A DNA stretch of 64,000 bases from contig CAVNZM010000012.1 in NCBI GenBank assembly GCA_963693365.1, positions 7,080,889 through 7,144,888 of the forward strand, in the 5' to 3' direction. Each line of letters starts with the position of its first letter. Position 1 is the first letter of the stretch. Position numbers and translations under genes: made by a program. The notes below the pieces were generated by a model. The model was not told where the DNA came from. It saw only the letters and a program-made list of their open reading frames with translations, and searched no databases. This DNA comes from Amoebidium appalachense. Its lineage: Eukaryota; Protista; Ichthyosporea. Positions 245-63,200 of this stretch are shown piece after piece.

Positions 245-3200
245 TGCTTGATGCGCAGTGAGTCGTGGCGCATGCCCACGTCCAACATCTGGTCTGCCTC
301 GTCAAACACGAGCATCACAACCTTGCGCGGGTCAAAGAACCTGTCGGCCCGACCCGAAAATAGCCAACAACCCGACCCGGAGAATTAGTCAGAAGCCCAT
401 CCGAACATGGCCTTGCAGCAAGTCAAAGGCCCGACCACAAACTAGTTAGCTGTCCAGCCCAAAGAAAGTAACCGGTCCGACCCGAAAAAGAAAGCAAGCA
501 GCCCGACCCGTAAATATCTAGCAGTCCGCTCTGACATAGGCTATCCCCACGGCAGAATAGGGGTTCCCGACCACAAGAACAAAGTAGGAACGGGAAGGCC
601 TTGCTGAAAGGTCGAGTAAGCATTATGCATAAGGGAGTGAAAAACTATAGCGGGGAAAAAAACAAAAACAAAAACAGCAGGTGTGCCCGCACGTGGAAGC
701 GCCCGGACGAGAAAGAGGGGGGGGGGGGGGGGGGGGGGGGGGGGGGGGGGGGGATGTATGTGTTAGAGGGTTGGAAATATGGAGGAGACAACAAGGAACA
801 ACAACAAATCGTCACAAAGGTGGGAAATCCAAAATCAAACAATTTAAGCGTGCAGGCTGAAGACACTTGAACAGAGCCCATCATCAGGGGGTTCCTATGC
901 TGGGGGGGGGGGGGGGGGGGACAGAGAGTAGGACACAGGGACTTCTGTGAGTGTGGATGTGGAGACAAATTCTCTGGAAATCCTTCCATCTCTTATCCTG
1001 TGTTATTGTCGCCTCTTTTTTTTTTTTTTTTTTTTTTTTTTTGGGGGGGGGGGGGGGGGGGTTCATACCTGAATTTGAGCCAGGTCATGATTGTGCCGGG
1101 TGTACCAATGATGATCTGTTCAGTGATTTTGTGGTTGCGGTCGACGTTGTGTGTGTGTGTGTGTGTGTGTGTGTGTGTGTGTGTGTGTGTGTGTGTGTGT
1201 GTGTGTGTGTGTGTGTGTGTGTGTGTGTGTGTGTGTGTGTGTGTGTGTGTGTGTGTGTGTGTGTGTGTGTGCATGGGTGTGTGTGTGTCTGTCTGCGCGT
1301 GCGCCTGCATGTGGGCATGTGTGTGTGTGTGTGTATGTGTGTGTGTGTTTATGCGTGTATGACATTTATGTATATGTCGGGTGAATGCCTTGGATGAGTA
1401 CGTCGCAGTCCCTTTCATCTAATCAATAAGACATGATCTAGAAAGGTGCAAGCGAAGGCAGTGTATGACTGGAGAGAATGGGGGGGGGGAGGGGGGGGGA
1501 GGAGGGGGGGGGGAGGGAGAGGTGGAATGTGTTACTAAGTACACAGTACACACTCATGACGGACAACACAATGCAGAATACTGAACAAAAAACACACAAA
1601 GTATGCATCACAAGCAGTGATCCACAGTACCCGAGTTTCGAATTATTCACCCACTTGCACCGAAACCAAACTCAGATACCGGTTCCACTTGAACATGGGG
1701 TGGGTCACCCGTCTTGATCAGAGACGAGCAGATGTCAAAAGCAAGACCAGTGGGAAGAGCTGGAAGTTAAGTGGCAGCAGCAAGCAACAAGCCAAAAAAA
1801 GAAGAAAAAAAAAAAAAAAAAAAAAAAAAAAAGATAGAAGTTCAGGAGGTGGGGATGCTGAAAAGCCCCCCCCCCCCCCCCTCCCCACCGTCCCTACCAA
1901 TTTACGACATTTTCCTTGCTACCATCCTAATTTTGCTGAAAGGAAACAATCAAAGGCCCCAAAATTTCCAGTCAGAGGGGGGAACTTAAAATTTCTAACC
2001 CATGCCCCATGGTAGCAAAACGTCTATTGTACTAGGGCGGAACCTTAGCGTTCATTGTGAAGGGGAGGAGGAGGGGGGGAGGGGGGGGGGGGGGGGGGGG
2101 GGGGGGGGGGGGAGGAGGGAAGGAGAAGGGTGGGGCGGGTGGTGGTGGTGGTGGTGGTGGTTGGGGGGGAGGGGGGGAGGGGTGGGGGGGGATATTTTAT
2201 ATATATATATATATATATATATATATATATATATATATATATGGAGGGAGGGGGGGGGGGGGGGGGGGGGGGGGGGGGGGATTACGTACATCTCTCTCCC
2301 TGGACGCCAATTAGGATCTTGATGTCCATGTACTGACCCATCTTGGAGCACACATCGTGGGTCTGACGGGCTAGCTCGCGGGTAGGACTGAGACAGATGA
2401 CCTGTGTGTGTGTGTGTGTGTGTGTGTGTGTGTGTGTGTGTGTGTGTGTGTGTGTGTGTGCATGTGCATGTGCATGTGTGCGAGCGTGCGTGCGTGCGCG
2501 CGCACGTGTGTGTGGTGTGCATGTTTTTTCCGTTCTTTTTTGTGTGGTGTGTGTGTGGTGTGTGGTGTGTGTGTGTGTGTGTGTGCATGTTTTTCCGTTC
2601 TTCTTTGTGTGGTGTGGTGTGTGTGTGTGTGTGTGTGTGTGTGTGTGTGTGTTCGGGCAAGCAGGGAGGCGTCTGGAAGGAGGGGGTGGAGGGGGGGGGA
2701 GAGGGGGGGGGGGGGGGGGGGGGGGAGGGGGGAGAAGGGTGCGTGAGCTTCTGTACGCAGGTGTGTTTTGGTGGAAAAGGCTACAAAGACCATCGGGGAG
2801 AGATGAAACATGACAGCAACAGACTAAGACAAAAACAAAAATGACGAGTACCGTGAGGTATGTCGTGGGGTGAGCATACAAATAGAGTATGCATCATAAA
2901 TCAAGCCCATATTCGGTCCCGGGGGGGAGGGGGGGATGAATTATAGAGTATCATGCACACATAAACAACGGACAACACAATGCAGAGTGCAAACCACATA
3001 TAAAGGATATGCATACTAAGCTAGAGCCCATCCTCAGGAGGGCCCAAAGCCATCCACAATGCCCGGAGGCCCCGGGCGGGGGGGGGGGGGGGGGGGGGGG
3101 GGGGGAGTTGGGGTTGATGTATGCGTTAGAGGGTTGGAGATACGGAGGAGACAACAAAGAGCAACAACAAAACGTCACAAAAGTGGGAAATCCAAAATCA

Positions 3201-60200: not shown

Positions 60201-63200
60201 TACTGGAATAACCATATTTAGGAATCATTGAGAAACATAGTGGTTAACCCTGTTGTCGTGTCTGCAGACCTACGAAGTCTTGAACGTGCTCGAGTTTACC
60301 TCCACAAGAAAGCGCATGTCTGTGATCGTCAGAACCCCCCAGGTGAGCACATGTACCTTCTAACTAGTTAAGTGTATGTATAGACATCCACCTGGCTATG
60401 TGTGTTTGGTATTGTTTCAAGGACTAGCTCGCAGGCGCTCATATCACCGAGTATTGAATTTTTTTTTACTATGTTTGCCTGGGTCTGGTGGAAATGAGAG
60501 AGAAGTTATCGCGTGTTTGGGTTGTGTGTGTGTGTGTGTGTGTGTGTGTGTGTGTGTGTGTGTGTGTGTGTGTGTGTGTGTGTGTGTGTGTGTGTGTGTG
60601 TGTGTGTGTGTGTGTGTGTGTGTGTGTGTGTGTGTGCGCGCGCGTGTGTGTATTTCTTTTATGTGTGTGTGAGTGTGCATTTTGTGTGTGTGCTGGAATA
60701 AGAGGATAAGAGGGGAGGGGGGGGGGGGGGGGGGGGATGCGCAGGAGACAGTGAATAATACTGACAGGCCGTGACCACCTATTTAGGGCACGCTGCTGCT
60801 GATGTGCAAGGGTGCTGACACAGCCATCATGGAACGACTGGCCCCGAACCAGCCCTTCGTCGATGTTACGTTGAAGTATGTATCCCCCCCCCCCCCCCCA
60901 TCTTTACTTCCATGCAACCGGGCATGGTTGCTCTGTGTCGTGCATCTGTAAGCACATACGCGTTTTTCGCTGTACTGCATTGGTTTGCACACACATCTTC
61001 ACCGTTTTGCTCACCTTGCTTGCATAAGCAACCCTGCTCGTCTTTGATCAAGACGGGTTGACCCACCCAAGTTCAGTTGATGCTGCTGTCTAAGTTGGAG
61101 CGTCGTATATACGCGGGCTAAGGGGTCGAAAGCAATTGATGACTTGGGCCCTCCCTGAGGATGGGCTCTGCTTATGACGCATACTGTGCGCACGGCTGAT
61201 GTTGCATACTTGAATGTTTGCCTTTGCATGTGTCCTGCACCATGCTTCTCATCGTGTATGCGTACTTCGTACTGTGTTCCGCATTCAAACCCCCCCCCTC
61301 CCCCCCCTCCCCCGGTAACCCTCCCCCTTCCCCCCAACCCTTCCTCCTCCCCCCAACCCCCCTGAAACAAACACACACGTATACATACGATGGTGCACCC
61401 TTTCGTTAAGGTTATCATTGTACATTCCTCGCACTACATATATATTGACCTCCCCCCTCCCCCCCCCCCCCCCTCCCCGCGCCCTGCCCCGCCCCGTCCC
61501 CTTCCGGGTCACATACACGAGCACACACAATCAAAGAGAATAAGCTCTGGCCATTTGTTGTTGCTGTTACATTAGGCATACCACGGCAATTGAGAGATGG
61601 CCGTGTGAGCACGAGAACTATTGCAAGGTGTGATATGATTAGTCATGGCACGATGTGATTGGTCGAAAATCATTACATAGCACAATGTGATTGGTGGTTG
61701 GCTGACCCCGTGTGCTGGGTTACAGACACCTAGAACAGTGTGCTGCCCAGGGTCTGCGCACTTTGTGTCTGGCTGTGGCCGAGCTGGATCCAGGTGGGGG
61801 GGTTTTTTGGCCCTGTTACGTAATCACATCACGTCTAAGGTGTCTAGATATGGACATGTAGACCATAGTTTTTGTCTCTGGTCTAATGTCTATAGATATG
61901 GGCATGTAGACCGTGGGGTTTTTTGTCCATGGTACGTAATCACGTCATCTTTAAATGTCTAAGTAATGACATGTAGACCATGGGTTTTTTGTCCCTGTTA
62001 CTTTATCCACAACATGTCTATTAGGGGTGTATAAATATGAACATGTAGTCTACAGACCAATGGTCTTTTGTTCCTGCTACGGTAATCACTTGATGCCTAA
62101 GATGTCTAAATATGGACTGTAGACCATATGAACCATATGTTTACAGTTGAAAGGCGGCTTCTATTCAATTTATTTCCTTTTCGTGTTTCCTCTATGGCCT
62201 GACGTGCTGTTAACCTCAGTTACGTACGAGAGCTGGGCCAAGGGCTACGAAGAGGCTCTGACGTCAATGACAGGTGCCCCCCCTCCCCCCTCCCCACCTC
62301 CCCCCCCCCCACCCACCCACCCATCCACCCACCAACACCACCACCAACACCACCACCAACACCACCATCACCACCACACACACACATGCACACACTAAAT
62401 TCGACAAGCCATTTTACAATCCCTAGGAAACCTAACTGAAGCTAATATTTACCGATACCTAATAATTTTCGTGCCTTTCAAAAATACTTTACGTGTTCAT
62501 GATACATTATGCAGAAACATTCAGACCAAAGAAGAAGGAAAACTTCGACCCCGCAGCACCTGTTGCGCACCGGCGCTTCTTAATATTTTCGCTTTCCCAG
62601 TTGGGTGGGTTGAATGCCAACCAATTAATTCTATGACATCATAATTTTACATCATTGTACCGCGCACCCAAACAAGTTTTACGCAGGAGGATTTATCATT
62701 TTGTGCGAACATCACAAATAATTTCTTAGTGGTAATGATCATGTTTTGCTTACACCACACACACACAGACCGTGAGAACAAGGTGTCAGCTGCATGTGAC
62801 AAGATCGAGAAGGACATGTTCCTGCTAGGTGCCACAGCCATCGAGGACAAACTGCAGGACAAGGTCCCCCCCCCCCCCCCCCCCCCCCCCCCCTCCTCCT
62901 CCCCCCTTCTCAAACACACACACACACACACACACACACACACACACCCGATTTTTCATCCAACGAATACATGTGTCGCTTTGGTGCATGCGTGTAAGCG
63001 TGTGCATCTAGATGAGACTCGTGTGTTTTCCTAGGGAGTGTGGCATGCATGCGGGCATGGGCTTGTGTTGAAGATTGGTCGTTGGCAAGCTCCCCCCCCC
63101 CCCCCCCCCCCCCTCTCCTTCTCCACGCCACCACCCTTCCCCCCTTTCGACCCTCTTAAACTCGACGAGCACACATTTTTCTTTGTTTCCCTTTCAGACT

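Follow-up and report, generated by a model that had tools for sequence, protein, structure and literature searches.

What kind of mobile element leaves copies that share one fixed end followed by a run of C, are cut short at the other end and, inside genes, all point the same way? The question is raised by 64,000 nucleotides (nt) of Amoebidium appalachense DNA (contig CAVNZM010000012.1, positions 7,080,889 to 7,144,888; the whole stretch is hereafter termed the window), in which a preliminary description had listed about 20 copies or fragments of a repeat, divided into subfamilies A, B and C and decayed copies. The present analysis indicates that these elements are probably non-autonomous Penelope-like elements (PLEs) of the Naiad/Chlamys clade, and that they carry a predicted hammerhead ribozyme assembled from four strands: an upstream strand (X), the cleavage site, a GAAA strand and a CUGANGA strand. 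The targeting of C-runs is already known; what is new is the lineage of the host, the prediction of a four-strand hammerhead that Naiads share, and an orientation more strongly biased than the target tracts.

Self-BLAST of the window, together with a profile made from 14 copies, places the listed copies at or near their reported positions and on the reported strands. Subfamilies A, B and C and the decayed copies co-align in the profile as a single repeat superfamily of about 20 copies in the window, each with one fixed end leading into a C-run and an opposite end that is variably truncated within C-rich DNA. Copies of subfamily A are 93.5-100% identical in pairwise comparison. The fixed-end sequence given for the family, GCATTCAA, does not extend to subfamily C, which ends in CATACAT(CAA), and the copy reported at 1524 is present with a different extent, reaching about 2050. 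The copies are as follows.

3626-3794, minus strand: subfamily A copy, truncation point at the GAAA strand
5259-5585, minus strand: subfamily A copy, strand X lost through a 10-nt deletion
17162-18183, minus strand: partial tandem of subfamily A units, head to tail, in an intron of VPS36, resembling a pseudo-long terminal repeat (pLTR), all parts 100% identical
20356-20748, minus strand: subfamily A copy, all four hammerhead strands intact, predicted cut after 20560
26331-26534, plus strand: subfamily A copy located in an intron of HSP90, with its first base 4 nt ahead of the predicted cut site
60900-61289, plus strand: subfamily A copy in a P-type ATPase intron, stem III with a 7-nt deletion
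44284-44769, plus strand: longest of the young subfamily B copies, intergenic, with all four strands intact and a predicted cut after 44601; a hairpin common to two Chlamys consensuses at 44426-44448
44898-45323, plus strand: subfamily B copy, intergenic (self-BLAST, flank table)
4930-5132, minus strand: subfamily B copy, truncation point within strand X
754-901, minus strand: subfamily C copy, CUGAUGA in place of the CUGAGGA of A and B
3113-3249, minus strand: subfamily C copy, 5' truncation at the internal C-run preceding CUGAUGA
1524-2050, minus strand: decayed B-like copy, CUGANGA strand deleted, two internal homopolymer expansions
2935-3077, minus strand: decayed copy (profile)
5675-5850, minus strand: decayed copy (5735-5850) and a 34-nt duplicate of its own 3' end (5675-5708) (self-BLAST, profile)
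16391-16505, minus strand: decayed copy (profile)
18393-18470, minus strand: decayed copy, weak match (profile E 0.14)
22420-22518, minus strand: decayed copy (profile)
41502-41667, plus strand: decayed B-like copy, loop joining the stem III strands deleted
51287-51384, plus strand: decayed copy, starting right before CUGAGGA
56255-56298, plus strand: 3'-end fragment of 44 nt (end motif by eye)
57040-57215, plus strand: decayed A-like copy (self-BLAST, profile)
30301-30620, plus strand: possible distant member between C10 and C35 (profile E 0.003-0.02), absent from the earlier list

Two of these pieces are weakly supported as family members: the one at 18393, which reaches E 0.046 against the copy at 2935, and the one at 56255, which has no profile match and was assigned by its end motif. 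The segment at 30301-30620 has the hairpin of subfamily B in common with it, along with the pyrimidine tract that follows (local score 61; maximum 48 in 200 shuffles), and possibly belongs to the family with a 3' end of another kind. A short piece located between the B copies (44835-44868, plus strand) ends in CCATTCAA followed by C29 and may represent the 3' end of a further subfamily. Public contigs matching 45085-45262 also contain a further subfamily, which keeps GGUCGAAAC and the bases preceding CUGA and differs in the 3' strand of stem III. In these contigs, from three DNA runs, 4,621-11,104 per run match the A stretch and 2,364-5,367 a 178-nt B stretch; such numbers denote a large family and give no copy number, nor is the summed contig depth (1e5-1e6 versus about 16 on the flank) usable as one.

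The C-run is a constant companion of the fixed end. In all 23 tabulated copies (30301 included), the 20 nt after it are at least 70% C, a composition found at 5.7% of background positions. At the opposite end, 8 of the 9 young A and B copies, whose 5' ends are defined by the break in homology, are preceded by 20 nt with at least 60% C (background 8.0%, p 1.4e-8); decayed copies were excluded from this test, since their boundaries had been placed by eye at C-runs. From the C-rich flanks on both sides we infer an insertion preference for (C)n. The same flanks make target-site duplications unreadable. Terminal inverted repeats are lacking in the three long copies checked. A second C-run lies inside the element, directly before CUGAGGA; copy 3113 begins there, and three decayed copies begin within a few bases of it. 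In the three DNA runs, 22, 47 and 75 contigs have loose ends at this second C-run, and for two of the runs the consensus of these ends is poly-C, a pattern which suggests that the 5' end is joined through C-rich microhomology. The element polarity has independent support, because the hammerhead motif occurs only on the strand that ends in the C-run. For the mode of insertion that had been proposed, akin to target-primed reverse transcription, the fixed 3' end, the 5' truncation and the C-run targeting are supported, and priming from a G-run is a step that we infer.

At 17162-18183 the copy reported earlier resolves into two full 453-bp units plus 116 bp, all 100% identical.

17162-17614, minus strand: full 453-bp unit 1
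17615-18067, minus strand: full 453-bp unit 2
18068-18183, minus strand: 5'-truncated 116-bp copy, preceding the two full units in the element sense
17608-17614 and 18061-18067, minus strand: C7 junctions

Each junction consists of CATTCAAAA, then C7, then the start of a unit. Because the C7 is internal at both junctions, at least 7 C belong to the template that is copied, and the oligo(C) does not have to be the end of the RNA, where it had been placed originally. The partial head-to-tail tandem (pLTR) typical of Chlamys PLEs is thus present at one clear locus. One-letter deletions at the tandem junction in the contigs are no proof of tandems elsewhere.

All of the hammerhead core nucleotides are found on the strand ending in the C-run, in a non-circular order (strand X, cleavage site, GAAA, CUGANGA).

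17285-17403, minus strand: predicted four-strand hammerhead of A unit 1, with G10.1 at 17399, cut after 17363, G12 at 17331 and C3 at 17297
453 bp away, minus strand: matching motif of A unit 2, predicted cut after 17816
45115-45229, plus strand: predicted four-strand hammerhead of B, with G10.1 at 45119, cut after 45154, G12 at 45182 and C3 at 45216

Strand X, an upstream GACCY strand, pairs with the GAAA strand as stem II, and its 3' part pairs with the bases preceding stem I as a link helix; stems III and I complete the fold, and a further 4-bp helix may close the opened core. Under this model 95.0% of 199 cells pair in 8 copies, and the comparison of A with B yields one double (compensatory) change each in stem I, stem II, stem III and the link helix. 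The core is in exact register throughout in A and B; its position 7 is G in A and B versus U in C. In the contigs, none of 7 substitutions present at 8% or more in 178 positions falls in the core (a count of low power), and at least 2 of the 7 are A-subfamily letters. Rfam returned no match at gathering score in the window and chance-level matches up to E 10, among them a weak partial match to Hammerhead_1 in B (E 7.1). A descriptor that accepts the three core blocks in any order matched 7 times when both strands of the window were scanned. Every match lies in an A or B copy, all have one order, and none has the canonical (type I-III) circular order; in shuffled sequence, loose matches arose in 7 and 8 of 5,000, none of them at the observed stem lengths. 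With the four-strand descriptor there were 5 matches in the window, compared with 0 in 20,000 shuffles for A, and likewise for B. Right upstream of strand X, a 25-nt hairpin (45094-45118 in B, 17401-17425 in A) is the stretch most conserved among A, B and the copy at 1524; in a predicted fold the CUGANGA strand is an alternative pairing partner of its 5' arm, and the hairpin is a possible off-switch or reverse transcriptase (RT) signal.

Two known arrangements resemble this motif. As in the type-SGC hammerhead (PMC10085705), the cleavage site comes first, then GAAA and then CUGANGA; stems I and III are present, the predicted fold is pseudoknotted, and a helix ties stems I and II. Type SGC forms stem II from the bases right after CUGANGA, whereas here the fourth, upstream strand pairs better with the bases before GAAA and covaries: an SGC-style stem II could form with no more than 4-6 bp, 2-3 of them G-U, and no double change, and that supplied by X has 5-6 Watson-Crick pairs with a double change. 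A plain SGC reading, which captures 2 double changes and none in stem II, was consequently replaced by the four-strand model. Type SGC is reported from metatranscriptomes and from no genome of a known organism, and its cleavage has been shown, while the motif described here is a prediction (PMC10085705). The other likeness is with Naiads (PMC8557442), in which the same X-S-G-C arrangement occurs near the 3' end; by eye, it is present in 7 Naiad consensus passages (three from Acropora, two from Octopus and two without a shown header) among the 34 places returned by a core-word search of the supplement of Craig et al. 2021. Three other places have the ordinary order with CUGANGA before GAAA, and most of the rest are in coding or unrelated sequence. 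Craig et al. themselves flagged eight "half core" (HHR_half_core) cases that match no descriptor (PMC8557442). Naiads are described as metazoan and (TA)n-preferring (PMC8557442), unlike the elements of Amoebidium, which have C-rich flanks, are non-coding and possess a longer stem III and scaffold. Our literature search found no published description of the four-strand wiring.

With respect to target and anatomy, the elements resemble the Chlamys PLEs of green algae, which insert at (C)n and (CA)n with 5' truncation and partial tandems, and whose non-autonomous members form multicopy head-to-tail insertions (PMC8557442). For many Chlamys families (C)n is given as the insertion preference (PMC8557442, supplement file S1). 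De novo insertions of Chlamys-9/N4 are short (median 128 bp), 5'-truncated and all intronic (PMC9977147), and MRC1 is a non-autonomous Chlamys-type element (PMC9940879). The earlier suggestion that such a family is undescribed therefore fails as to kind, since Chlamys PLEs share the (C)n target, the truncation and the tandems. Our comparators were MRC1, Chlamys-N4_cRei and the (C)n-targeting Chlamys-1, -2 and -9_cRei and Chlamys-3_cInc (PMC8557442; PMC9977147; PMC9940879); like the present elements, they target (C)n, are 5'-truncated, have short insertions in introns, form partial tandems of head-to-tail units and lack a canonical hammerhead. All three Chlamys (C)n consensuses read whole end, as here, in an A-rich stretch and a C-run (PMC8557442). 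In two of these three algal consensuses, a hairpin after the stop codon has, by eye, the same 16 specified bases as subfamily B, a pattern which matches twice in the window and never in 100 shuffles. This hairpin is all that the 3' end was found to share with autonomous elements of the N-terminal GIY-YIG (no CCHH), CxC and IFD-RT kind, and as kinship between B and Chlamys, judged by eye on few sequences, it is suggestive only. The elements differ from Chlamys in their host, an ichthyosporean holozoan rather than a green alga, plant or slime mould, in the four-strand hammerhead motif, of which no sign was noticed in the three algal consensuses read whole, and, compared with autonomous Chlamys, in being known as non-coding copies with no coding partner in the window. 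It is the combination of Naiad-type wiring with a Chlamys-type target and anatomy that makes membership of this clade likely; because no RT partner was found, the assignment is founded on anatomy, target and RNA motifs, not on an enzyme. About half of an Amoebidium genome is reported as transposable elements, in automatic classes only (PMC11244446), and our search, which missed most subscription papers, found no report of such elements in ichthyosporeans.

Five genes of the window were used to examine orientation, two on the minus strand (a DEAD-box helicase and VPS36) and three on the plus strand (HSP90, an unnamed gene at 40.0-43.6 kb and a P-type ATPase). Their strands were assigned by Pfam (DEAD, EAP30/Vps36 and a weak E1-E2 ATPase match), by tblastn for HSP90 and by eye for the unnamed gene. 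The HSP90 exon at 26971-27663 is 100% identical to a EukProt protein with an Amoebidium parasiticum accession; the next relative with a name, a protein bearing an Ichthyophonus code, reaches 91%. At 28157-28178 there is an apparent one-base frameshift in HSP90 at a short C-run, with tblastn pieces in two frames; as this is probably a homopolymer error, run lengths in the assembly may be inexact.

In the two minus-strand and three plus-strand genes, 19 of 19 separate intronic insertions carry the C-run end on the host-sense strand, just as the preliminary description had observed. It had attributed this orientation to an intronic excess of C on the sense strand. The window contains 191 runs of C or G of at least 10 nt in 64 kb; about 70% have C on the sense strand within genes, and between genes there is no bias. 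In the five genes, C is on the sense strand in 72 of 100 such tracts, and in 43 of 70 away from elements. Against this background the probability that all copies would be in sense is p 0.002 for the genes taken together, 0.004 when computed gene by gene and, versus the free tracts, 0.0005 in Fisher's test, values which are weakened because copies sharing one tract are not fully independent. Since 19 of 19 exceeds the tract background, target bias alone probably does not account for the orientation; transcription-coupled insertion, selection against antisense copies and a bias seeded by the elements themselves are candidate causes. The four strands are all kept in only 2 of the 19 intronic insertions and in both intergenic B copies, and of the 5 intronic copies whose length covers the motif, 3 have lost bases from it by deletion. 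These small numbers fit selection against cutting of the pre-mRNA.

The anatomy, the flanks, the tandem and the motif with its pairing pattern are direct observations, from which the following course of events can be envisaged. A GIY-YIG endonuclease would open a C/G tract by nicking its G-rich strand, and from this nick in a genomic G-run a partner RT, as yet unfound, would reverse-transcribe the element RNA: the G-run, now with a free 3' end, would anneal to the C7 located after CATTCAAA in the RNA and serve as primer for the cDNA. Synthesis would usually stop early, and the product would be joined by microhomology of C-rich sequence, in many cases at the internal C-run that precedes CUGAGGA; a partial tandem of head-to-tail units would result if synthesis went on for longer or the RT switched templates. 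According to the prediction, the ribozyme cuts some 170-200 nt upstream of the fixed end, its stem II supplied by strand X rather than by the bases after CUGANGA, and its link helix joining the far ends of stems I and II. In its fullest form, which we regard as less likely than not, the four-strand, core-opened hammerhead would be the active ribozyme of the Naiad/Chlamys clade and predate animals, and in Amoebidium it would divide tandem transcripts into 453-nt units, poly-G-primed on their internal C7 in a transcription-coupled insertion that occurs only where the G-run is on the template strand.

If this were true, a stem II taken from a fourth strand would break the rule behind the six enumerated hammerhead permutations (PMC10085705), and the wiring would explain why Naiad and Chlamys elements were reported without hammerheads. 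The two halves of the clade would moreover be linked by elements of a unicellular animal relative that unite Naiad-type wiring and Chlamys-type targeting. Strict co-orientation beyond the target bias would point to transcription-coupled insertion or to strong strand-specific selection, and the elements may have seeded part of the C-run load of the genome. The host is culturable and has many young copies.

Several results weigh against the probable PLE origin or against the predicted ribozyme. The four double changes all stem from the single split between A and B, and both hammerhead descriptors were composed after the motif had been seen. Stem I has just 3-4 bp. ViennaRNA folds contain stem III and neither stem I nor stem II (pseudoknots being outside its model), with unremarkable z-scores of -0.95 and -0.73. 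A common variant at 45123, T>C with 4-13% of depth, disrupts one pair of stem II unless its partner changes as well, and no such change is listed at 8%. An active ribozyme on the sense strand of introns is expected to be harmful, yet every intronic insertion is in sense. Inspection of the three (C)n-type Chlamys consensuses from algae by eye revealed no such motif, and none of 9 RT loci fetched from metagenomes matched the descriptor. A conserved 25-nt element motif had no match in viral contigs and none in metagenome contigs. No empty site was seen, in that no joint spanning the 17162-18183 insertion occurs among 15 listed of 83. The 64-kb window yielded no RT or endonuclease, and among 33 and 27 Naiad/Chlamys-like proteins none is a named ichthyosporean, although most are unnamed and the searches were word-limited, so that this is weak evidence of absence.

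Part of this evidence would also suit a PLE derivative whose hammerhead-like motif no longer cuts, or never did, and serves as a folded recognition signal for the RT. We regard this as possible, if doubtful. The short stem I and the missing stems I and II in the predicted folds are in its favor, together with the lack of a covalent link between A9 and G10.1 and the tolerance of sense copies in introns. A motif without catalytic function would, on the other hand, scarcely be expected to retain the core in exact register in A and B, with double changes in four helices, or to share its wiring with distant Naiads; the deletions in 3 of the 5 motif-spanning intronic copies and the substitution-free core in the contigs (0 of 7, low power) also count against it.

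The tandem raises a further alternative, which is a variant of the template step and compatible with PLE membership: 453-nt monomers, released from tandem transcripts by the ribozyme, would circularize as in retrozymes, and the G-run would prime at the single C7 and be extended round the circular RNA. The units are indeed 100% identical, C7-joined and provided with an intact motif per full unit, and animal non-LTR retrozymes, argued to be non-autonomous PLE derivatives, are likewise small and non-coding with a hammerhead in each tandem unit (bioRxiv 10.64898/2026.07.22.740005). Retrozymes, however, have type I hammerheads, are mostly tandem and are excluded from introns according to the same source, as opposed to the mostly single, truncated and intronic copies found here, in which neither Rfam nor the descriptor gave a type I match. 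A tandem of full units occurs at only one of about 20 loci, and PLEs form partial tandems without a proven circle (PMC8557442). The contigs gave no proof of common full-unit junctions, because the G-run flank of any copy mimics such a junction. A circular template is thus rather unlikely.

A short interspersed or truncated long interspersed nuclear element (LINE) family with a simple C tail, moved by a non-LTR RT as the preliminary description implied, is improbable. A fixed 3' end with 5' truncation is a LINE trait as well, and LINE-class repeats are reported for this genus (PMC11244446); PLEs are favored instead by the partial tandem with its head-to-tail units, by the hairpin in common with Chlamys and by the Naiad-type motif close to the 3' end, and there is no poly(A) tail. 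The last alternative is a DNA element moved by a transposase or an HUH endonuclease (Helitron- or Replitron-like). Rolling-circle elements can show one fixed end and tandems. Replitron insertion is also orientation-specific at its target (PMC10288648), but such an origin is very improbable, given the absence of terminal inverted repeats from the three long copies, the ribozyme motif on one strand, which implies an RNA stage, and truncation all along one end, where Replitrons are mostly whole-length with short terminal direct repeats (PMC10288648).

Returning to the probable PLE membership, the coding partner was sought in several ways. Pfam detected no RT or endonuclease in 69 frames, comprising most of the 100 listed of 395 intergenic frames and 3 short ones at 30303-30617. 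A degenerate RT motif hit no viral locus and 9 metagenome loci, in which neither the hammerhead descriptor nor the B hairpin pattern nor the element profile found a match. AT-rich frames of Naiad/Chlamys-like RT are present in short metagenome contigs (L007:3-1475, plus strand; L009:368-1069, minus strand; L002:598-1266, minus strand). The idea that 30301-30620 is a decayed Chlamys RT thumb was rejected: a read-through search of 1.84 billion proteins gave no match, and a thumb profile of 36 aligned Naiad/Chlamys-like proteins scored the segment no better than noise. A similar coding reading of the 5' end at 44284, made by eye, was dropped.

Other repeats of the window are of a different kind. 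An intron of the P-type ATPase contains an inverted duplication (52068-52419) with arms of about 120 bp that include C/G-rich tracts; 33 bp remain at 100% identity after masking. Local tandem duplications occur at 13180-13712, 40107-40278, 57343-57554 and 59340-59685, and most of them copy an exon-intron boundary.

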